Positions 4,132 to 10,161 are shown, counted from the first letter of the stretch. The stretch: DNA of 10,236 bases from Escherichia coli (GCF_003334355.1 NZ_QOWP01000056.1), one strand, 5' to 3'. Made by a program: numbers and translations. The notes: generated by a model not told the origin, from the sequence alone.

Positions 4132-4207
4132 GCCGATATAGCTCAGTTGGTAGAGCAGCGCATTCGTAATGCGAAGGTCGTAGGTTCGACTCCTATTATC
4201 GGCACCA
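4132..4207 (+). tRNA. thrW: tRNA-Thr (anticodon CGU)
   Basis: 76 nt, GCCGATATAGCTCAGTTGGTAGAGCAGCGCATTCGTAATGCGAAGGTCGTAGGTTCGACTCCTATTATCGGCACCA. It has a cloverleaf, a CGT anticodon, a GGTTCGA T-loop and an encoded CCA. Confidence 0.97.
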
Positions 4208-4224
4208 TTCAAACATCTCCCCAA

Positions 4225-4308
4225 GTCTACTAAAGTCTTTCAAAACCCCTTATAATCCGCGTATTAAAGCCCCGTTCGTCTTTTGACGTCTACTAAAGTC
4301 CCTCAAAA
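4225..4308 (+). repeat. Two 21-bp direct repeats GTCTACTAAAGTCYYTCAAAA (4225-4245 and 4288-4308), candidate integrase arm-type sites
   Basis: 19/21 identical and 63 bp apart, between the tRNA (att side) and int. A third related copy GTTTACTAAAGTA lies at 5611-5623, just after int. Confidence 0.55.
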
Positions 4309-4319
4309 TCTACGGTCAG

Positions 4320-4370
4320 ATGGGGGTACTTATGGGGGTATTTGCTGTTCGGTTTAGTGGAGGTACCCCC
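4320..4370. repeat. GGGGGTA motif cluster: a tandem pair plus one inverted copy over the int 5' region
   Basis: ATGGGGGTACTT (4320-4331) and ATGGGGGTATTT (4332-4343) are in tandem. TACCCCC (4364-4370) is the inverted copy, between the int SD and the GTG start. Confidence 0.5.
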
Positions 4371-4372
4371 AA

Positions 4373-5587
4373 GTGAAACTCAATGCCCGTCAAATAGACA
4401 CAGCCAAGCCAAAAGAGAAGGCTTACAAGCTGGCCGATGGTGGCGGTTTGTATCTCTTGGTAAAACCTAATGGAGGTAAATACTGGCGACTTAAATATCG
4501 TGTAGCTGGTAAAGAGAAGCTATTGGCACTAGGTGTGTATCCTGAGGTTACTCTAGCCGATGCTCGGGCAAAACGTGAAGATGCGAAAAGAGGTATCGCT
4601 GGTGGTATCGATCCGATGGAAGCGAAACGAGAGGAAAAGATTGCCCGGGAAACGCAGTTAAACAACACCTTCAAAGATATTGCCCTTGAGTGGCACAGCA
4701 GCAAATTAAAAAAATGGTCTGCTGGTTATGCTTCAGACATCCTCGAAGCCTTCAACAAAGATGTGTTCCCTTACATTGGCAAAAAACCAATCGCCGAAAT
4801 CAAACCACTTGAACTTCTGAATGTGCTGCGGCGCATTGAGGGGCGCGGTGCTACAGAAAAAGCCAAAAAAGTGAGGCAGCGGTGCGGGGAAGTTTTCCGC
4901 TATGCAATAGTCACTGGTCGCGCAGAGTATAACCCTGCACCAGACCTTACTAGCGCGATGCAAGGCCATGAATCTAATCATTACCCTTTCCTTACAGCCA
5001 AAGAATTACCTGATTTTTTCAAGGCATTGTCCAGTTACTCAGGAAGCGCATTGGTTGTTATGGCGGCTCGTCTACTGATTATCACAGGCTTGCGGACTGG
5101 CGAACTACGTGGCGCATTATGGGATGAAATTGATTTCAACAAGGCTCTCTGGGAGATACCCGCTTCACGTATGAAAATGCGGCGGCCTCATATTGTGCCA
5201 TTGTCTGAGCAGGCTCTTTCGCTTATTGGGAAGATTAGAGAAATAACAGGCAATTACCCTCTTATGTTTCCCGGGCGCAATGATCCAAGGAAAACAATGA
5301 GTGAGGCCAGCATAAACCAAGTGTTTAAGCGCATTGGCTACGCTGGACGTGTAACTGGTCATGGGTTCCGGCACACTATGAGTACGATTTTGCATGAGCA
5401 GGGCTATAACACCGCGTGGATAGAAACGCAGCTCGCTCACGTTGATAAGAACTCAATTCGTGGCACATACAACCATGCGCAATATCTGGATGGAAGGCGG
5501 GAGATGCTTCAATGGTATGCCGACTATATGGATTCTCTCGAGCATGGCGGAAATGTGGTGCATATGGTGTTTGAAAAACACGCATGA
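4373..5587 (+). CDS. P4-family tyrosine integrase (tRNA-associated)
   Basis: 404 aa, GTG start with GGAGG at 4359-4363. The N-terminus MKLNARQIDTAKPKEKAYKLADGGGLYLLVKPNGGKYWRLKYR is typical of P4-type integrases. Catalytic contexts are GLRTGELR, HGFRHT and RGTYNHAQY. It lies directly beside thrW. Confidence 0.93.
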   Translation: MKLNARQIDTAKPKEKAYKLADGGGLYLLVKPNGGKYWRLKYRVAGKEKLLALGVYPEVTLADARAKREDAKRGIAGGIDPMEAKREEKIARETQLNNTFKDIALEWHSSKLKKWSAGYASDILEAFNKDVFPYIGKKPIAEIKPLELLNVLRRIEGRGATEKAKKVRQRCGEVFRYAIVTGRAEYNPAPDLTSAMQGHESNHYPFLTAKELPDFFKALSSYSGSALVVMAARLLIITGLRTGELRGALWDEIDFNKALWEIPASRMKMRRPHIVPLSEQALSLIGKIREITGNYPLMFPGRNDPRKTMSEASINQVFKRIGYAGRVTGHGFRHTMSTILHEQGYNTAWIETQLAHVDKNSIRGTYNHAQYLDGRREMLQWYADYMDSLEHGGNVVHMVFEKHA

Positions 5588-5635
5588 AACAACTGGACAA
5601 GTATACAGAGGTTTACTAAAGTATAGGGGAGTAGA

Positions 5636-5663
5636 TTGATAAAAACTCACAGAGGATTACTAT
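5636..5663 (+). promoter_or_regulatory. Candidate sigma-70 promoter for the spacer transcript
   Basis: TTGATA (5636-5641), a 16-nt spacer, then TACTAT (5658-5663). Transcription would start about 5670, just before the first boxB-like hairpin. Motif match only. Confidence 0.25.
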
Positions 5664-5673
5664 TTAACAGTTA

Positions 5674-5705
5674 GCCCTGGAGAAGGGCAATCGCTCTTTT
5701 AACAA
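5674..5705 (+). promoter_or_regulatory. nut-like module 1: boxB-like hairpin plus boxA-like sequence
   Basis: GCCCT-GGAGA-AGGGC (5674-5688) differs at one loop base from the recalled lambda nutL boxB GCCCTGAAGAAGGGC. After 3 nt comes CGCTCTTTTAACAA (5692-5705), which is rrn boxA TGCTCTTTAACAA with one extra T. Confidence 0.6.
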
Positions 5706-5725
5706 CGAAGATGGAATCTTCTACG

Positions 5726-5754
5726 CAGCTGAAAAGCTGGATGCTCTTTAACAG
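5726..5754 (+). promoter_or_regulatory. nut-like module 2: GNRA hairpin plus boxA
   Basis: CAGCT-GAAA-AGCTG (5726-5739). After 2 nt comes TGCTCTTTAACAG (5742-5754), a 12/13 match to rrn boxA. Confidence 0.6.
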
Positions 5755-5840
5755 CCTTTGGTGCTTTCCTGATGCAGGAAAGAATAGGGATACATGCACC
5801 TTTACAATGCATGTAATGATTCATCCATGAGGCTGCGGAT

Positions 5841-5870
5841 CGCTGACAAAGCGCAATTGCTCTTTAACAT
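5841..5870 (+). promoter_or_regulatory. nut-like module 3: P22-type boxB core plus boxA
   Basis: CGCT-GACAA-AGCG (5841-5853) is the core of the recalled P22 nutL boxB. After 4 nt comes TGCTCTTTAACAT (5858-5870), a 12/13 match to rrn boxA. Confidence 0.6.
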
Positions 5871-5952
5871 TGATGTGGGCGGGATGGTTCGTCCCGCAGT
5901 GACCGATAGATTTCTATCGGGAAACATACAATGATTCAAATATGAATCTACG

Positions 5953-5982
5953 GCGCTGACAAAGCGCAATTGCTCTCTTGCC
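5953..5982 (+). promoter_or_regulatory. nut-like module 4: hairpin identical to P22 nutL boxB plus a degenerate boxA
   Basis: GCGCT-GACAA-AGCGC (5953-5967) equals the recalled P22 boxB-left 15-mer. After 3 nt comes TGCTCTCTTGCC (5971-5982), with a GCTCT core as in lambda boxA CGCTCTTA. Confidence 0.6.
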
Positions 5983-5992
5983 TGCCCACCAT

Positions 5993-6019
5993 GCCCTGAA
6001 AAAGGGCGTTCTTTAAAAC
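5993..6019 (+). promoter_or_regulatory. nut-like module 5: hairpin identical to lambda nutR boxB plus a degenerate boxA
   Basis: GCCCT-GAAAA-AGGGC (5993-6007) equals the recalled lambda nutR boxB 15-mer. It sits 13 nt after the boxA-like TGCTCTCTT and is followed directly by GTTCTTTAAAAC (6008-6019). Confidence 0.65.
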
Positions 6020-6028
6020 TACTGGATG

Positions 6029-6046
6029 TCACGCCTAATAGCGTGA
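6029..6046 (+). promoter_or_regulatory. Hexaloop hairpin, possibly a phage-21-type boxB
   Basis: TCACGC-CTAATA-GCGTGA, 9 nt after the boxA-like 6008-6019. From memory the phage 21 boxB is a UCACC.../...GGUGA stem with a CUAACC loop. The resemblance is tentative. Confidence 0.3.
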
Positions 6047-6116
6047 TCCTGCCGAAATGCAGGGTAGCTCTACCCTTGTGGAGCAAACAAACCAAAACAA
6101 TCTGACTATCTTTTAT

Positions 6117-6152
6117 AAAAGACCGCAATATGTTTTTCATATTGTGGTCTTT
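6117..6152 (+). terminator. Strong hairpin / candidate terminator immediately upstream of alpA
   Basis: GACCGCAATATG (6121-6132), loop TTTTT, CATATTGTGGTC (6138-6149): 12 bp with one G.U pair on the + strand RNA. It is flanked by AAAA (6117-6120) and TTT (6150-6152). A G-free C/A-rich tract (6084-6103) precedes it. Confidence 0.5.
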
Positions 6153-6238
6153 GGCGTATTCGACATTTGATGCAAATAAAACTCTCGCCATTCGTTGCAG
6201 GAGGGAGTTATTGCGTCATTAGTACAGGATATTAATAA

Positions 6239-6442
6239 ATGGCTAATTACAATTCATTAATTCGTCTCTCTGAAGTTCAAAGGCGAACTGGTTATAGCAA
6301 AGCATGGATTTATCGTCTTATTAGTCAGGGGAGGTTCCCTAAACAGGTAAAAATTGGAAGTCGGGCAATTGCTTTTGTTGAGTCTGAAATAGATGAATGG
6401 ATTGAGAAGTGTATATTAGAATCTAGAGACGAGGTGGCCTGA
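6239..6442 (+). CDS. alpA: AlpA/Vis-family phage transcriptional regulator / excision factor (MerR-like HTH)
   Basis: 67 aa. LIRLSEVQRRTGYSKAWIYRLISQGRFPKQVKIGSRAIAFVESEIDEWI is the AlpA-family pattern. AGGA lies 10 nt upstream of the ATG. It is the first gene of a co-directional operon. Confidence 0.9.
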   Translation: MANYNSLIRLSEVQRRTGYSKAWIYRLISQGRFPKQVKIGSRAIAFVESEIDEWIEKCILESRDEVA

Positions 6443-6873
6443 TGGAAAAGAAAAACCGCCCATTACAGGCGGCTAATTCAGATATTCGCGTATCTGATGT
6501 TACGCCCCTGACAAAATCCCTTCAAGCACCAAAGCGCACACCGAAAAAGCATCGTGCCAGAGTCTATATGCTGCGTACTGGTATAGAGGGATGGACAGAA
6601 AATGACATTCTTCGCTACTGCCGTCTGTCTTCTGGTCGTAACTATGCAACAGAGTTAGAACGCCAGCTTGGAATCACTCTGGAGCGTATCGACGAAAAGA
6701 ATCCTGATGGTATCGGAACACACCTTCGCTACCGTTTCTCCTGCCGTGGTGATGTTCTGAAAGTGATCACTCATGTTAACCATCTTGCGAGCATAAATGA
6801 TCACAACGGACTTTCTCAGCAGGAAATTGCCGACATTCTGAAACTCTACCCGGACGCGTTTAACGCCGCCTAA
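6442..6873 (+). CDS. Hypothetical island protein (143 aa) with a basic N-terminus
   Basis: Its start overlaps the alpA stop (TGATG). No family recognised. Confidence 0.7.
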   Translation: MEKKNRPLQAANSDIRVSDVTPLTKSLQAPKRTPKKHRARVYMLRTGIEGWTENDILRYCRLSSGRNYATELERQLGITLERIDEKNPDGIGTHLRYRFSCRGDVLKVITHVNHLASINDHNGLSQQEIADILKLYPDAFNAA

Positions 6874-6885
6874 CGGAGACTGAAA

Positions 6886-7719
6886 ATGAACATCGAAAAA
6901 AGCAGATTAATTTCTGAGGCCGCCCCTCATCTGAACGCCTCTCTGGGCACAATTAACGGTAATGAATTTGCCGCAATTGTCCCGGTTATTCCTGGTCATA
7001 TCGGTGGGCGTGAAACCAATATTGTTAGCGCAAAAGCGTTACACAAAGCGTTGGGCGTGGGAAAAGACTTCTCTACATGGATCACTGATCGCATCTCTGA
7101 ATATGACTTCACCATTGGGCACGATTACTCAGTCCATAAAACAATTTCCCCAAATTTGGGGAAAAGCCCGAATGGCGCGGCTTACAGCAAGATTAAGCAG
7201 TCTGGCAGACCCGGCAAAGACTATCTGTTAAGTGTCGGAATGGCGAAAGAACTGGCAATGATCGAACGCAATGATCAGGGTCGCGCTATCCGCCGTTATT
7301 TCATCCAGTGCGAGGAAGAATTACAGCGTAGCGTGCCTGAAATCGCCGCCCGCTATCGTCGCCAGCTAAAAGCCCGTATCAGTGCCGCAAACAACTTTAA
7401 GCCAATGTGCGATGCGCTGAATATGGCCCGTGCCGAGATGGGTAAAACGACGCAGCAACACCACTACACAAACGAGAGCAATATGATTTCTCGTATCGTT
7501 CTTGGTGGGCTAACTGCTAAGCAGTGGGCGCGGATAAATGGCTATTCTGGCGAACCTCGCGACCATATGAACGCAGAACAGCTTGAGCACCTCTCATATC
7601 TCGAAAGCACCAATATCACGTTAATTGATATGGGCATGGAATATGAGCAGCGCAAAGGAGAACTCACCCGCCTGTCGCAACGCTGGCTCGCCAAGCGTCT
7701 GGAGGTGGTCAATGTCTAA
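6886..7719 (+). CDS. Phage antirepressor-like protein (AntA/AntB-type N-terminal domain)
   Basis: 277 aa. SAKALHKALGVGKDFSTWITDRISEYDF...GRPGKDYLLSVGMAKELAMIERNDQGRAIRRYFIQCEEE matches the AntA-domain pattern. GGAG lies upstream. Confidence 0.85.
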   Translation: MNIEKSRLISEAAPHLNASLGTINGNEFAAIVPVIPGHIGGRETNIVSAKALHKALGVGKDFSTWITDRISEYDFTIGHDYSVHKTISPNLGKSPNGAAYSKIKQSGRPGKDYLLSVGMAKELAMIERNDQGRAIRRYFIQCEEELQRSVPEIAARYRRQLKARISAANNFKPMCDALNMARAEMGKTTQQHHYTNESNMISRIVLGGLTAKQWARINGYSGEPRDHMNAEQLEHLSYLESTNITLIDMGMEYEQRKGELTRLSQRWLAKRLEVVNV

Positions 7720-7894
7720 GCCAACAGGAACACCACAACCACAAAAACGCTACAAAGATGCCCACGGAGCACTCGTTACTGTCGAAAGCGTGTCTCACAA
7801 CCGAGTGACGTTTTATCGCGACGGGTATCAATCGCCATGCGTACAACCGCTGGCGCGTTTCATGAAGGAGTTCGCGGAGGTTAACAAATGCTAA
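7712..7894 (+). CDS. Small DUF4222-like protein (60 aa)
   Basis: Internal ATG at 7712 of track ORF 7625..7894, preceded by GGAGGTGG (7701-7708) and overlapping the upstream stop (ATGTCTAA). YKDAHGALVTVESVSHNRVTFYRDGYQSPC resembles DUF4222 proteins (recalled). Confidence 0.7.
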   Translation: MSKPTGTPQPQKRYKDAHGALVTVESVSHNRVTFYRDGYQSPCVQPLARFMKEFAEVNKC

Positions 7895-8955
7895 CCGTCC
7901 AGAAGAAGACATTTTCACTGGCTGGTATGTCGCCAAAATCCAGCAATATGACGGCAAAGTCAGGCATTAATACAGCAGATACAAGCAAAGTTTATCATTT
8001 GCTGGTGGTCGGAACGGATGCCTTAACCATATCAGAAATCTCGGGCGATGATATTAGCATTGAGAAGGTCAGCGGCTGCGCCAGAAAATTTCTGGTCGTA
8101 GATGATGTCTTCCGCTCGTGTAGTGACTCCACAAAAACATTCGTCCACGCGCGTGACGTTAACGAAATGAGCGCGATGTACTGTGCATCTGGTGCTTCCA
8201 ATAGCGAGTTTTCGGAGTCCATAAAAAAGAGCTTGCCGTTATGCGGCAACACGGTTTATGGTTATAAGGCACCTCATAAAACGGGTGCCGGGATTGGCGT
8301 CCTGGTAAATCGAATGGCGACATATGACGCGCCGAGCGTCTTTTTTTATGTCGTAGGTCTGACTCACCCATTTTTTGGGCGTTGGTGTATAATCCAGCGC
8401 CTTTGTCAATCAATGGTGGCTCAGGCAGGGGCTTCTTCGGAAGCGCCGGTATCCATTCGAGCCGGTTACGCCAACCCTGTCTGGGCTACCACCAGCGAAA
8501 TTGGCGTTTCCGGTGGTAGCGTTACATGCTATCGAATGGAGGCTGCCACATGCTGGCTACTACCCCTACCCAAAAACCGCAATTTATCTGGATTATCGCC
8601 GCAGTTCGCCGCGATTGCCCGACAATTACCGCCAAAATTCATCATATTGCTGCCGAGTCTGAACGCGATGCTCGCCGTTCTCTGGTGCGCGATCACGTCT
8701 GCTTTTTTGCTGGTCGTATCCGCATGGAGGTGGCACATGATTAAAACCTACGATGTGCATATGGATCCCCTCGAACGCACAAGCCAGATCATCACACTGA
8801 CAGAAGTGATTAACGACATTCTGGTGAGCAACTCTCCCTCACGAGACGAAAGACTGAAGGCGTTACTCGCGATATTGGATCTCGCCGTTCGTGACGTTCA
8901 TTTCCTGCTGGAAGGTGGCGAAATGCCAGGAAAAACGGGGGCAACCAATGAATAA
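7888..8955 (+). CDS. Long open frame (355 codons). The 5' start is well supported, but the frame is probably a composite rather than one protein.
   Basis: The ATG at 7888 has GGAGG (7876-7880) at 7-nt spacing and overlaps the DUF4222 stop (ATGCTAA). The N-terminal ~120 aa look protein-like ([36 protein letters not shown], wHTH-like). The frame then crosses a terminator, a TATAAT box, a structured RNA region and the icd-like gene without meeting a stop. The true 3' end is undetermined. Confidence 0.3.
8326..8347 (+). terminator. Intrinsic-terminator-like hairpin with a T7 run
   Basis: GACGC (8326-8330), GCCGA loop, GCGTC (8336-8340), then TTTTTTT (8341-8347). Confidence 0.5.
8388..8393 (+). 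promoter_or_regulatory. Perfect -10 hexamer TATAAT upstream of the structured RNA region
   Basis: TATAAT at 8388-8393 with TG just upstream. I found no good -35, so the promoter call is weak. Confidence 0.3.
8400..8525 (+). ncRNA. Candidate c4 (P1/P7) / CI (P4)-like antisense immunity RNA; boundaries approximate
   Basis: Three hairpins. The first is GCTTC-TTCG-GAAGC (8431-8444, UUCG tetraloop). The second has a CCGG stem (8446-8449 / 8462-8465) presenting the loop ATCCATTCGA (8451-8460). The third is GCTACCACC (8485-8493) / GGTGGTAGC (8512-8520). The second loop is complementary to sites at 8309-8317 and 8531-8540. An icd-like gene follows, as in P1 immI. Confidence 0.55.
8550..8744 (+). CDS. 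Icd-like protein (host cell division inhibitor family of P1/P4-like elements)
   Basis: Internal ATG at 8550 of track ORF 8526..8744, with GGAGG (8538-8542) 7 nt upstream. [21 protein letters not shown]...[23 protein letters not shown] matches my recollection of Icd-like proteins. Confidence 0.8.
   Translation: MLATTPTQKPQFIWIIAAVRRDCPTITAKIHHIAAESERDARRSLVRDHVCFFAGRIRMEVAHD
8737..8955 (+). CDS. Small hypothetical protein (72 aa), probably an independent start within the long open frame
   Basis: The ATG at 8737 has GGAGG (8726-8730) 6 nt upstream and overlaps the icd-like 3' end by 8 nt. The sequence is helical. Confidence 0.55.
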   Translation: MIKTYDVHMDPLERTSQIITLTEVINDILVSNSPSRDERLKALLAILDLAVRDVHFLLEGGEMPGKTGATNE

Positions 8956-9142
8956 CTCAATTAATACCCCTCGCCTTACGTCCGCACTTCAATTAATCGA
9001 GCAAGCAGCGGCTGTCCTGGTTGCTGTCAGTCTTTCGGCTGAAGAAATGGACGCTGCTGATGTCGTGGATGCGATTAAAGCGTGCTCATCTTTGGTTAAC
9101 GATGCCCGTGCCGAGCTGGTAATTCTTGGGGGTGAAAAATGA
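8948..9142 (+). CDS. Small hypothetical protein (64 aa)
   Basis: Internal ATG at 8948 of track ORF 8891..9142, overlapping the upstream stop (ATGAATAA). Alanine-rich and helical. Confidence 0.65.
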   Translation: MNNSINTPRLTSALQLIEQAAAVLVAVSLSAEEMDAADVVDAIKACSSLVNDARAELVILGGEK

Positions 9143-9402
9143 ATATCAACTTAATTTATCGTCATCCGTGTGAGCTGGAAATTGAATCATTGCTGGGGCG
9201 TGAAGAGCCATATCCAGACACATTCACTCCCGCAGATTGCGCGACTGAACGGCTTACCAGAGCGCGCACAGGTCTGGTTCATGTGATGAATGAGATTGTT
9301 CCCTCGGTGGGAGGGGAACAGGCGACAGTAATCAATAGCTGGCTACAAAAAGTTACCTCCCTGATAGATATCGGTTTAATCGATGTGGAGAGTGCGAAAT
9401 GA
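9139..9402 (+). CDS. Small hypothetical protein (87 aa)
   Basis: ATGA start/stop overlap with the upstream gene. Same operon. Confidence 0.7.
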   Translation: MNINLIYRHPCELEIESLLGREEPYPDTFTPADCATERLTRARTGLVHVMNEIVPSVGGEQATVINSWLQKVTSLIDIGLIDVESAK

Positions 9403-9620
9403 CCAACATCCAGCTCATTGAAGCGCAATGTCGCATCGAACAGGTTCAGACTGTTTTAGGGTTCTGGCTTGAAGGGGCCAGCCCCAGCAACAGAGACAAG
9501 TTAATGATTGGCGCGGTTATGTCACTGCTCAATGGCGTACCAGAAGCTATTCAGGAAGCGGACGAATTGTTGGGCAAATATGAGTTACAGAATCATTCAG
9601 GCGAGGCGAAACATGAATAA
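9399..9620 (+). CDS. Small hypothetical protein (73 aa)
   Basis: ATGA start/stop overlap with the upstream gene. Same operon. Confidence 0.7.
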   Translation: MTNIQLIEAQCRIEQVQTVLGFWLEGASPSNRDKLMIGAVMSLLNGVPEAIQEADELLGKYELQNHSGEAKHE

Positions 9621-10161
9621 TTTCTTAACCTTCCATGCAGAAGCAACGCCTGACGGCGTAAACATCATGCACCGCAGCAACGATGGCATGACAGAACGCG
9701 TTGAGACCGTCTCATATATTGATGCCGTAAATCGTCTGGATGCCGGGGATTATGACGATAAACCAGATGAAGGCATGTTTATACATCTCGCTATTGCCAG
9801 TGGCGGCAACCAGGGATATTTCGATTACACATCACAGCATCACGTGATTATGTGGCGCTGGCTGATAGCAACAGCATTCATCAATGAAATGAGAAAGGAA
9901 AACGGCACCGTCAGCATTATTGATGACAGTGGCAATCATTCCGTGGTTTCTGTTTATTCCAATGGCATCGTCGCCATGCCGCTGTATCCAGTAGCAGAGC
10001 GCCTCGCTATGGCAAACAACATTGAGGGCGCAATGATCGAGAAATATGGTGTTGATGTCGGAACAAAGAATGCCATCATTTTTTACAGCAACATGTTCGA
10101 TGTCGAACAGGGAACACTCACTTCGTTTGGGCGAGAAGTGCTTGCCGATCTTCACAACTGA
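9613..10161 (+). CDS. Hypothetical protein (182 aa) whose stop codon is supplied by the adjacent IS end
   Basis: Internal ATG at 9613 of track ORF 9508..10161, overlapping the upstream stop (ATGAATAA). The TGA at 10159-10161 is the first three bases of the IS terminal repeat. No family recognised. Confidence 0.7.
   Translation: MNNFLTFHAEATPDGVNIMHRSNDGMTERVETVSYIDAVNRLDAGDYDDKPDEGMFIHLAIASGGNQGYFDYTSQHHVIMWRWLIATAFINEMRKENGTVSIIDDSGNHSVVSVYSNGIVAMPLYPVAERLAMANNIEGAMIEKYGVDVGTKNAIIFYSNMFDVEQGTLTSFGREVLADLHN

Follow-up and report, generated by a model that had tools for sequence, protein, structure and literature searches.

The stretch of DNA analysed here (the window) comprises 10,236 nt of Escherichia coli (NZ_QOWP01000056.1) and carries, in this order, a tRNA-Thr(CGT) gene, an integrase gene (int), a 651-bp spacer, alpA, an open reading frame (ORF) of 143 aa, an AntA antirepressor gene and an Ash/Icd-like ORF with isrK and C4 RNAs, which is the 'integration zone plus Bro zone' order of Gram-negative phage-inducible chromosomal islands (PICIs) (PMC10111431). 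With int and alpA at its left side, unidirectional genes, an antirepressor/Ash zone with immunity RNAs, a primase (outside the window, present in the related sequences L001 and L103) and a tRNA-Thr by proA, the locus is a phage satellite, namely a PICI of the EcCIMP1 family. The attachment (att) core TCCTATTATC reported for EcCIMP1 (PMC11773190) begins at 4191, the integrase agrees with its EcCIMP1 counterpart at 404 of 405 translated positions (stop counted), and the two AlpA proteins are 100% identical. EcCIMP1 is integrated at the same tRNA-Thr, beside proA, and is induced and mobilised by its helper phage Kapi1 (PMC11773190). A first-pass annotation of the window had spoken of a non-phage locus, which is right in the narrow sense only. 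The int-alpA spacer is occupied by a tandem array of boxA motifs and boxB-type hairpins, i.e. the RNA elements of the N-utilization (nut) sites of lambdoid phages, all on the alpA strand, and is separated from alpA by a conserved terminator hairpin. We assign a probability of roughly 60% to the reading that this multi-specificity nut array makes alpA transcription depend on the N protein of a helper phage.

The nut sites of lambda (nutL, CGCTCTTAAAAATTAA-GCCCTGAAGAAGGGC; nutR, CGCTCTTACACATTCCA-GCCCTGAAAAAGGGC) and P22 (nutL, CGCTCTTTAACTTCGATGAT-GCGCTGACAAAGCGC; nutR, carrying CCGCCGACAACGCGG) were read from the phage genomes, and the boxB sequences that the first-pass annotation had quoted from recall turned out to be correct; recomputation also located every motif that it had listed. 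Namely, GCCCTGAAAAAGGGC at 5993-6007 is identical to the lambda nutR boxB, GCGCTGACAAAGCGC at 5953-5967 to the P22 nutL boxB, the core of the latter (CGCTGACAAAGCG) occurs again at 5841-5853, and GCCCTGGAGAAGGGC at 5674-5688 is one loop base off the lambda nutL boxB. Boxes of a known N class are thus present at 5993-6007 and 5953-5967, and the hairpin at 6029 matches such a class approximately only. Scanning with the pattern GCBCTGRMRAAGVGC (≤1 mismatch) yielded four sites, all on the + strand and inside 334 bp, with none elsewhere in the 10-kb window; because only 0.04 sites were expected from shuffled sequence and four were reached in none of 200 shuffles, the boxB motifs are not a product of chance. 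Among the matches listed in a scan for GCCCTGGAGAAGGGC, 119 loci were examined, none of which had the 15-mer in a nut-like context, and boxA-like strings were nearby in only two, both unrelated sequences.

The boxA component (CGCTCTT(T)A or TGCTCTTTAACA) is represented by two exact copies of TGCTCTTTAACA and four near matches, all on the + strand. A search with GCTCTTTAACA (≤2 mismatches) gave 11 sites versus 2.85 expected, a count reached in 0 of 200 shuffles, and its sole two exact copies fall in the array. Six successive boxA-hairpin units could be delineated, with start-to-start offsets of 16, 15, 22, 21, 22 and 22 nt, to be compared with reference boxA-boxB offsets of 16/17 nt in lambda, 20/19 nt in P22 and 21/23 nt in the phage-21 type, so that a boxA precedes the hairpin at a short distance as in phage nut sites. 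Three of the six units end in recognised boxB classes, and the hairpins of the other three (h2, h4 and h7) are without a known counterpart. Neither P22-type boxB has a boxA close upstream, like the 933W-type nutL that they copy; instead, a boxA follows directly downstream. The spacing described earlier held up, hairpins being followed after 0-3 nt by a boxA-like motif or starting 9-13 nt past the end of one. The hairpin-then-boxA order of the repeat unit is also that of the leader of the ribosomal RNA operons (rrn), and the rrn leader sequence used for comparison was found at 100% identity in all 5426 genomes (median, 7 copies per genome). The array has no convincing boxC, the sole shared stretch being TGTGGGC; this 7-mer, present in the rrn leader boxC region (TGTGTGGGCACTCG), recurs after boxA 3 (5858-5879) and may be a chance match or a vestigial boxC.

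A phage origin was most directly traced for one module of the array. When the spacer was compared by megablast with 5,426 complete E. coli genomes, roughly 660 gave a match, and hundreds matched at 5923-5970 only; these latter matches lie in lambdoid prophages, flanked by the repressor gene and the N gene, and on the strand of the leftward early operon. Among the collected phages, 933W, H-19B and many Shiga-toxin (Stx) phages are 94-96% identical to these 48 bp, and GenBank records of 933W-like immunity regions (GQ499361 and relatives) label the site 'nutL'; its orientation to the downstream genes in the island is that of nutL to N. The module contains a dyad hairpin upstream of the boxB, fitting the two-hairpin architecture reported for H-19B nutR (PMC3526286), and the match covers the dyad hairpin as well as the boxB; the module is a copy of a phage nut site rather than a coincidence. 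Extended phage homology is confined to these 48 bp: BLAST of 5640-5925 and 5968-6240 against 50,697 phage records returned no significant match (15-mers being too short for a database of this size), and a distant BLAST of 5754-5925 against the E. coli genomes retrieved island copies only, in 43 genomes, with no prophage counterpart.

The third specificity concerns the hexaloop hairpin at 6029. Phage-21-type nut sites, as in HK629 and Kapi1, read TGCTCTTTAACA-GTTCTGGCCT-TTCACCT-CTAAC(A/C)-GGGTGAG for nutR, and the nutL of this type reads GGCTCTTTAACA-TCGACGGAC-TCTCAAC-CTAACC-GTTGAGA. The island hairpin resembles nutR in its outer four stem pairs (UCAC/GUGA), in the first four loop bases (CUAA) and in its boxA offset (22 nt versus 23), the inner stem differing by paired changes; among its variants, G-C to G.U and C-G to U.G substitutions keep the stem paired, and, like the phage loops, the hexaloop ends in A or C. 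Of the claim that several N classes are addressed by one array, the lambda and P22/933W classes stand, accompanied by boxA on one strand, and phage 21 is supported only in part. The relevance of this class was followed to the EcCIMP1 helper with a 44-residue query that we take to be phage-21 N; all 44 residues (100%) were matched by N genes such as those of HK629 and VT1-Sakai, and equally by Kapi1_020 (vB_EcoP_Kapi1, MT813197; L101 2501-2806), annotated as hypothetical. Kapi1 has canonical boxA-boxB nut sites upstream of Kapi1_020 and downstream of cro, and Kapi1_020 is, judged by its sequence, a phage-21-type N.

To what extent the array is shared was assessed on 36 arrays (18 distinct) of E. 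coli islands with two closely related alpA alleles, collected from complete genomes, IMG/VR and metagenomes. Each of the 18 distinct arrays has the phage-21-like hairpin and the terminator, together with one or more P22-type boxB and two or more boxA; their lengths vary from 386 to 646 nt through gain or loss of whole modules, with breakpoints in the repeated boxB/boxA sequences. The 427-bp spacer of EcCIMP1 has the same core, comprising a lambda-like boxB, boxA copies, the GAAA hairpin, a P22-type hairpin, the phage-21-like hairpin, the G-poor tract and the terminator hairpin. In an alignment of nine arrays, 96.6% of pair cells were standard pairs versus 33-47% with slid partners, and six pairs changed on both sides, a number reached by 2 of 500 shuffles (0-2 in the slid controls); stem pairing is thus kept, by compensatory and wobble changes, in both island families. 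Wherever they occur, boxB loops of the P22 type and of lambda are invariant, and those of h5, h8 and h13 drift. Specifically, the loop and all but the outermost stem pair of the 5953 boxB are invariant in the nine aligned arrays, the outermost pair being U.G in one and a mismatch in another; the first P22-class copy has the full 5-bp GCGCU/AGCGC stem in other alleles and in KEN03 reads GCGCU-GGCAA-AGUGC, with pairing kept via G.U. The lambda nutR boxB occurs in 5 of the 18 distinct arrays and, among long arrays, is degenerate in the KEN03, L118 and L165 alleles.

Exchange of loops was found at position 5726, where the alleles CAGCU-GAAA-AGCUG, CUGCU-GAAA-AGCGG (A-U to U.G, both sides) and UCGCU-GACAA-AGCGG keep the hairpin and switch the loop to the P22 type. 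In the second island family, the position of the 5674 boxB holds a different 4-bp hairpin, CC[GA]U-CAUGU-AUGG; in its members L104, L105, L149 and L165 this hairpin is followed by GCGCTC(T/C)TTGTAACAA and may serve a different N-like protein as its boxB. The h13 of the second family reads CCCGC-CGAAA-GCGGG, with U-A replaced by C-G on both sides. The array region as a whole folds far better than shuffled sequence (z = -7.9), and each hairpin is stable alone (Table 1). Exact h4, h7 and hexaloop hairpins in IMG/VR were restricted to island copies, bar one unrelated hexaloop match, and gave no phage source.

Outside this group of islands the array was not encountered. Upstream of 80 AlpA-homologue genes of other genera (AlpA 69-81% identical) there were essentially no boxA or GNNNA pentaloop hairpins, so the array is a specific acquisition of E. 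coli islands rather than background. A metagenome scan with a 17-mer gave 96 stretches, with island arrays in 15 of the 80 screened and a few more among the other 16; the remaining stretches are most likely chance matches. The int-alpA spacer of EcCICFT073 (L011 11161-11525, strain CFT073) has no lambda or P22 boxB and no array. The idea that other satellites carry boxB upstream of alpA is accordingly borne out for the 18 of 18 distinct E. coli island arrays and fails for the 80 loci of other genera and for EcCICFT073. The EcCICFT073 spacer contains CACTCTTAAAAAT, which agrees at 12 of 13 positions with the lambda nutL boxA and its flank, as well as the hairpin AAAGGCGUAAAA-GUAAAA-UUUUAUGCCUUU with 12 bp, repeats of the GAACAAC type and, immediately before alpA, a long tract rich in C and poor in G; from its sequence, it may be a different, possibly Rho-based, gate.

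Table 1. Features of the island's left end in the window, in order of position (h, hairpin)
Feature	Position	Strand	Remarks
tRNA-Thr (CGT)	4132-4207	+	Island attachment site; ARAGORN and Rfam
Tyrosine integrase	4373-5587	+	Pfam Arm-DNA-bind_3, Phage_int_M, Phage_integrase; same direction as array and alpA
Candidate sigma-70 promoter, TGGACA-17-TAAAGT	5594-5622	+	Consensus scan; predicted start near 5629-5631; putative driver of the leader
boxA-like motif 0, TACTATTTAACA	5658-5669	+	TGCTATTTAACA in most alleles; 16 nt start-to-start to boxB, as in lambda nutL
Lambda-class boxB variant, GCCCU-GGAGA-AGGGC (GCCCTGGAGAAGGGC)	5674-5688	+	-7.9 kcal/mol
boxA-like motif 1, CGCTCTTTTAACA	5692-5704	+	Sequence match
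h2, GAAGAU-GGA-AUCUUC	5707-5721	+	One pair A-U to G-C, both sides, in 4 of 9 aligned sequences
GNRA-tetraloop hairpin, CAGCU-GAAA-AGCUG (CAGCTGAAAAGCTG)	5726-5739	+	P22-type pentaloop hairpin at the same position in other alleles
boxA motif 2, TGCTCTTTAACA	5742-5753	+	Exact; identical to rrn leader boxA and phage-21-type nutR boxA
h4, CUUUCCUG-AUG-CAGGAAAG	5764-5782	+	-8.4 kcal/mol; 22 nt from boxA 2 start; one C-G to U.G
h5, 8-bp stem, 9-nt loop	5791-5815	+	Hairpin prediction
P22/933W-class boxB copy 1, UCGCU-GACAA-AGCGC (core CGCTGACAAAGCG)	5840-5854	+	4-bp stem
boxA motif 3, TGCTCTTTAACA	5858-5869	+	Exact match
h7, GCGGGAU-GGUUC-GUCCCGC	5879-5897	+	-12.2 kcal/mol; 21 nt from boxA 3 start
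h8, CCGAUAG-AUUU-CUAUCGG	5903-5920	+	Stem kept, loop variable among alleles
48-bp 933W/H-19B-type nutL copy	5923-5970	+	Dyad hairpin, boxB and AAT; 94-98% identical to lambdoid prophages/Stx phages
Dyad hairpin, GAUUCA-AAUA-UGAAUC	5933-5948	+	Upstream of P22-type boxB, inside the 48-bp module
boxB, GCGCU-GACAA-AGCGC (GCGCTGACAAAGCGC)	5953-5967	+	Sequence identity to P22 nutL boxB
boxA-like motif 4, TGCTCTCTT	5971-5979	+	Start 22 nt ahead of lambda boxB start
boxB, GCCCU-GAAAA-AGGGC (GCCCTGAAAAAGGGC)	5993-6007	+	Sequence identity to lambda nutR boxB
boxA-like motif 5, CGTTCTTTAAAAC	6007-6019	+	Sequence match; CGCTCTTTAAAAC in second family
Hexaloop hairpin, UCACGC-CUAAUA-GCGUGA (TCACGCCTAATAGCGTGA)	6029-6046	+	22 nt from boxA 5 start; in 18 of 18 distinct arrays
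h13, CCUGC-CGAAAU-GCAGG, then h14	6048-6076	+	Hairpin prediction
A/C-rich, G-poor, unstructured 41-nt tract	6077-6117	+	A17 C8 G5 T11; GC skew -0.22 to -0.26
Terminator hairpin, 15 bp	6118-6152	+	-19.7 kcal/mol; between array and alpA
alpA	6239-6442	+	Pfam Phage_AlpA, 7e-20; gene that the array would control

The elements expected at the two borders of such an array were also located. Upstream, a candidate promoter was recognised by consensus match only; its -35 hexamer, 17-nt spacing and TAA(A/C)GT -10 element are kept in the divergent island family, and it falls within the equivalent of the EcCIMP1 fragment, -449 to +50 of alpA, that is sufficient for helper induction. Downstream lie the G-poor tract, a candidate Rho-loading (rut) site, and the conserved terminator hairpin. 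In the second family the tract keeps its composition with a different sequence and length, and the terminator (L104, L105, L149 and L165) reads ACCACAACAUG-UUUU-CAUGUUGUGGU, one pair being changed from U-A to C-G; as UUUUUGUCGUGUU comes next, this hairpin is a canonical + strand intrinsic terminator.

From earlier work, alpA is the master activator of Gram-negative PICIs and its transcription rises only on helper induction (PMC6092414). A lux fusion to the -449 to +50 fragment of EcCIMP1 alpA was strongly induced by mitomycin C in Kapi1 lysogens and not in non-lysogens; the fragment, which responds to the helper in trans, covers the whole spacer, and its induction persists without AlpA (PMC11773190). 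Reporters fused to a promoter, a nut site and a terminator are switched on by N provided in trans (PMC3526286). For the Pseudomonas AlpA, antitermination is proven: it overcomes an intrinsic terminator that follows its promoter (PMC7969949, PMC9371919).

Putting the array beside these findings, we propose that the int-alpA spacer would be transcribed into an untranslated leader RNA of roughly 520-600 nt consisting of tandem nut sites. With no helper, transcription from the leader promoter, or reading through from int, would halt at 6118-6152 or at a preceding Rho-dependent site, leaving alpA off. Upon lytic growth of a lambdoid helper, N would be made and would bind, on the nascent leader, the boxB matching its arginine-rich motif, i.e. 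5674 and 5993 for lambda N, 5840 and 5953 for P22/933W N, and possibly 6029 for phage-21 N. Together with NusB/NusE on the adjacent boxA, NusA and NusG, it would convert RNA polymerase into a termination-resistant form that reads alpA, and AlpA would then excise and activate the island and reinforce its own expression; as the Pseudomonas AlpA bypasses an intrinsic terminator, the island AlpA may lock in the read-through. The boxA copies would probably also protect this long, untranslated RNA against Rho, letting polymerase get as far as the terminator. Several classes in one array would let the island respond to several helper families, and gain, loss and loop-swapping of modules would retune the helper set. 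The promoter activity, the termination without N, the binding of N and the dependence on N are the parts of this reading that we infer. A further-reaching version, to which we give rather less than even odds, holds that the concatenated nut sites of three classical N classes could form an RNA reader with exchangeable modules, serving as the helper sensor of this PICI family, that the N-loaded polymerase could transcribe the whole island, and that h4, h7 and h13 could be boxB for uncharacterised N-like proteins. If true, the N-modified polymerase would also pass the terminators on which immunity RNAs of the C4/isrK type presumably depend, so that one protein of the helper would suffice to overrule all levels of repression in the island.

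Several observations weigh against N control of alpA. The inducer of EcCIMP1 alpA could be another phage product acting on a promoter; EcCICFT073 is induced by lambda and phi80 (PMC6092414), and because it is lambda-inducible without a lambda boxB, N sensing in array form is not a general PICI mechanism. In the array itself, no partner is known for half of the hairpins (h2, h4, h5, h7, h8, h13 and h14), one lineage shows decay of the lambda nutR boxB, and the loop at 6029 departs at two of six positions from the Kapi1 boxB loops, including the C of the UAAC turn (UAAU here), which is the GNRA-like structural core of phage-21 boxB (PMC12550061); because of this U in place of C, the hairpin is called phage-21-like and its class is not taken as established. 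At the borders, the candidate promoter matches the consensus at 9 of 12 positions, the U-tract of the window terminator is weak (UCUUUGG) and was unflagged by the consensus scan, and the same hairpin, read on the minus strand, is followed by UUUUAU, which makes the terminator polarity ambiguous in the window. Covariation, in turn, is weak evidence alone because the compared arrays are closely related.

Among other explanations, the one that fares best, though unlikely in our judgement, is that a constitutive leader RNA, ending at the terminator, acts mainly as a decoy, soaking up helper N on 4-6 boxB hairpins and NusB/NusE on the consensus boxA copies; this would delay or weaken the early transcription of the helper, as a form of interference or superinfection immunity, and would not turn on alpA. 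Several boxB of high-affinity type and consensus boxA copies on one RNA would suit such a sponge. A heavily transcribed consensus boxA reportedly competes for NusB and inhibits lambda N function (Friedman and colleagues, 1990). EcCIMP1 reportedly adds to superinfection immunity against Kapi1 (PMC11773190). A decoy, however, need not sit in cis, co-oriented and upstream of the activator with a terminator between, an arrangement kept in 18 of 18 arrays; the equivalent EcCIMP1 fragment activates a downstream reporter on helper induction, which would not be expected of a pure decoy; and a single-copy chromosomal locus with a modest promoter would be a weak sponge. The decoy could also coexist with an N sensor.

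Antitermination of the rrn type by host factors only, with boxA recruiting NusB/NusE/NusG/SuhB against Rho and the hairpins being structural without any phage N, is very unlikely. The identity of TGCTCTTTAACA to the rrn leader boxA, the shared hairpin-then-boxA order and the long untranslated leader speak for it, but it leaves unexplained the exact identity to lambda and P22 boxB and the 48-bp copy of a phage nutL, and an antitermination that is always on is at odds with the expression reported for EcCIMP1, which is low without induction and depends on the helper. Moreover, the sequence of the rrn boxB is not known to be required for rrn antitermination. Host factors are more plausibly a supporting layer, the boxA copies carrying polymerase as far as the intrinsic terminator.

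Equally doubtful is the view that the nut-like segments are scars, without function, of exchange with lambdoid prophages, that some other helper product acting at a promoter induces alpA and that the terminator serves only a Q-like self-antitermination by AlpA. The extended phage homology of one 48-bp module only, the lambda boxB decay in one lineage, the terminator bypass by Pseudomonas AlpA (PMC7969949, PMC9371919) and the lambda response of EcCICFT073 without a lambda boxB would accord with it, whereas neutral debris is disfavoured by the single orientation of all boxB and boxA copies, the phage-like boxA-to-hairpin spacing at six successive units, the module-wise evolution with indels at module boundaries and loops swapping between known boxB classes, and the pairing maintained through compensatory and wobble changes in two island families with different int/alpA alleles.

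Control of alpA by helper N, as preferred here, would combine features of several known systems. Like lambdoid nut sites, the array presents boxA and boxB hairpins on nascent RNA ahead of a terminator and with the same boxA-to-boxB offsets; phages, however, have one nut site per early operon with one specificity for their own N, and the island has 5-6 sites with two or three specificities in about 400 nt. Phage nut sites belong to an early operon with the cognate N gene, whereas the array stands upstream of a satellite activator with no recognisable N. In function it would be a nut site, though not one belonging to a phage, because it lies in a satellite locus without a recognisable N gene. 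SaPI/Stl (the Staphylococcus aureus pathogenicity islands and their repressor) and P4/P2 are similar in that a satellite detects a specific early helper product to begin its cycle, which proceeds there through protein-protein derepression (phage proteins on Stl) or transcription factors (Cox, Ogr, delta); the island receptor proposed here would instead be an RNA hairpin array, and its effector a helper antiterminator acting on host RNA polymerase. The rrn leader shares the identical 12-nt boxA and the hairpin-then-boxA order, but it does without phage proteins and has a boxB of neither the lambda nor the P22 type, and the island has no clear boxC.

Laboratory promoter-nutR/tR1-lacZ cassettes, in which N in trans passes the terminator and turns the downstream gene on (PMC3526286), work by the same logic, the island version being natural, having several specificities and governing the life cycle of a mobile element. 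Helper-dependent alpA transcription as in EcCICFT073 and EcCIMP1 (PMC6092414, PMC11773190) concerns the same type of island. Helper-embedded PICIs also exploit antiterminated transcription driven by the helper, through read-through in cis from its late operons (PMC10111431); they require physical insertion in the helper, whereas the nut array would act in trans from the chromosome. The Q-like AlpA of Pseudomonas aeruginosa belongs to the AlpA family as well, and in the operon that it targets the promoter is followed by an intrinsic terminator (PMC7969949, PMC9371919); this protein binds DNA and is independent of nut sites.

As for the neighbouring genes, the 143-aa ORF (6442-6873, + strand) starts over the alpA stop (ATGA) and contains a basic patch, PKRTPKKHRARVY; it belongs to no Pfam or PHROG family, and its homologues follow alpA in all thrW islands examined. 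An N encoded by the island itself had no Pfam or PHROG support in the window, the 143-aa ORF having just this short basic patch. An antisense ORF of 129 aa across the array (5802-6191, minus strand; WP_225389441.1 of the Prokaryotic Genome Annotation Pipeline), listed as a hypothetical protein in genomes that have the long array, was rejected as a gene: it has no Pfam match, goes unannotated wherever array modules are deleted, and is probably a spurious call. At Rfam gathering thresholds the window yields only the tRNA, isrK (8269-8346, 67 bits) and C4 antisense RNA (8409-8496, 79.5 bits), and at E ≤ 1 nothing credible appears within 5560-6260; isrK and C4, both on the + strand in or beside a 355-aa Ash-family ORF (7888-8955), look like an immunity RNA module of the P1/P4 type.

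Two rearranged copies of the island were seen. In strain 510016 (L001, NZ_CP025851.1), 10608-16581 is a 99.7% identical copy of window positions 4195-10158 that sits inside a prophage DNA-methyltransferase gene, not at tRNA-Thr, downstream of the prophage Q antiterminator gene; the secondary att site has ATTATCGGCACC in common, and the island is here in a helper-embedded arrangement. In strain SW07164 (L106, 1-1623), an IS3 element stands where the integrase gene and the array's left third would be; the truncated array starts at the first P22-type boxB, and alpA is intact downstream.

BoxA, boxB and N antitermination are textbook parts; of a tandem multi-specificity array gating the master regulator of a satellite we found no description, nor any paper connecting alpA of PICIs or other satellites with nut sites, boxB or antitermination. 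The authors of the Gram-negative PICI study stated in 2018 that the phage-encoded alpA inducer was 'now under study' (PMC6092414), and the 2025 EcCIMP1 paper mapped the helper response to a 499-bp alpA fragment (PMC11773190); in both, the inducer is left unnamed, and terminators, nut, boxA, boxB and antitermination are not mentioned (PMC6092414, PMC11773190). Helper N acting on captured nut sites would offer a concrete and testable mechanism for this open question of how PICIs sense their helpers. The reading yields a prediction of the lambdoid phages that are able to mobilise these islands, Shiga-toxin phages of the 933W type among them, and it makes the unassigned hairpins candidate ligands for uncharacterised N-like proteins. 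If true, the array would be the first satellite receptor made of RNA and a natural transcript with several N specificities, bearing on how helper range evolves by gain, loss and loop swap of modules.

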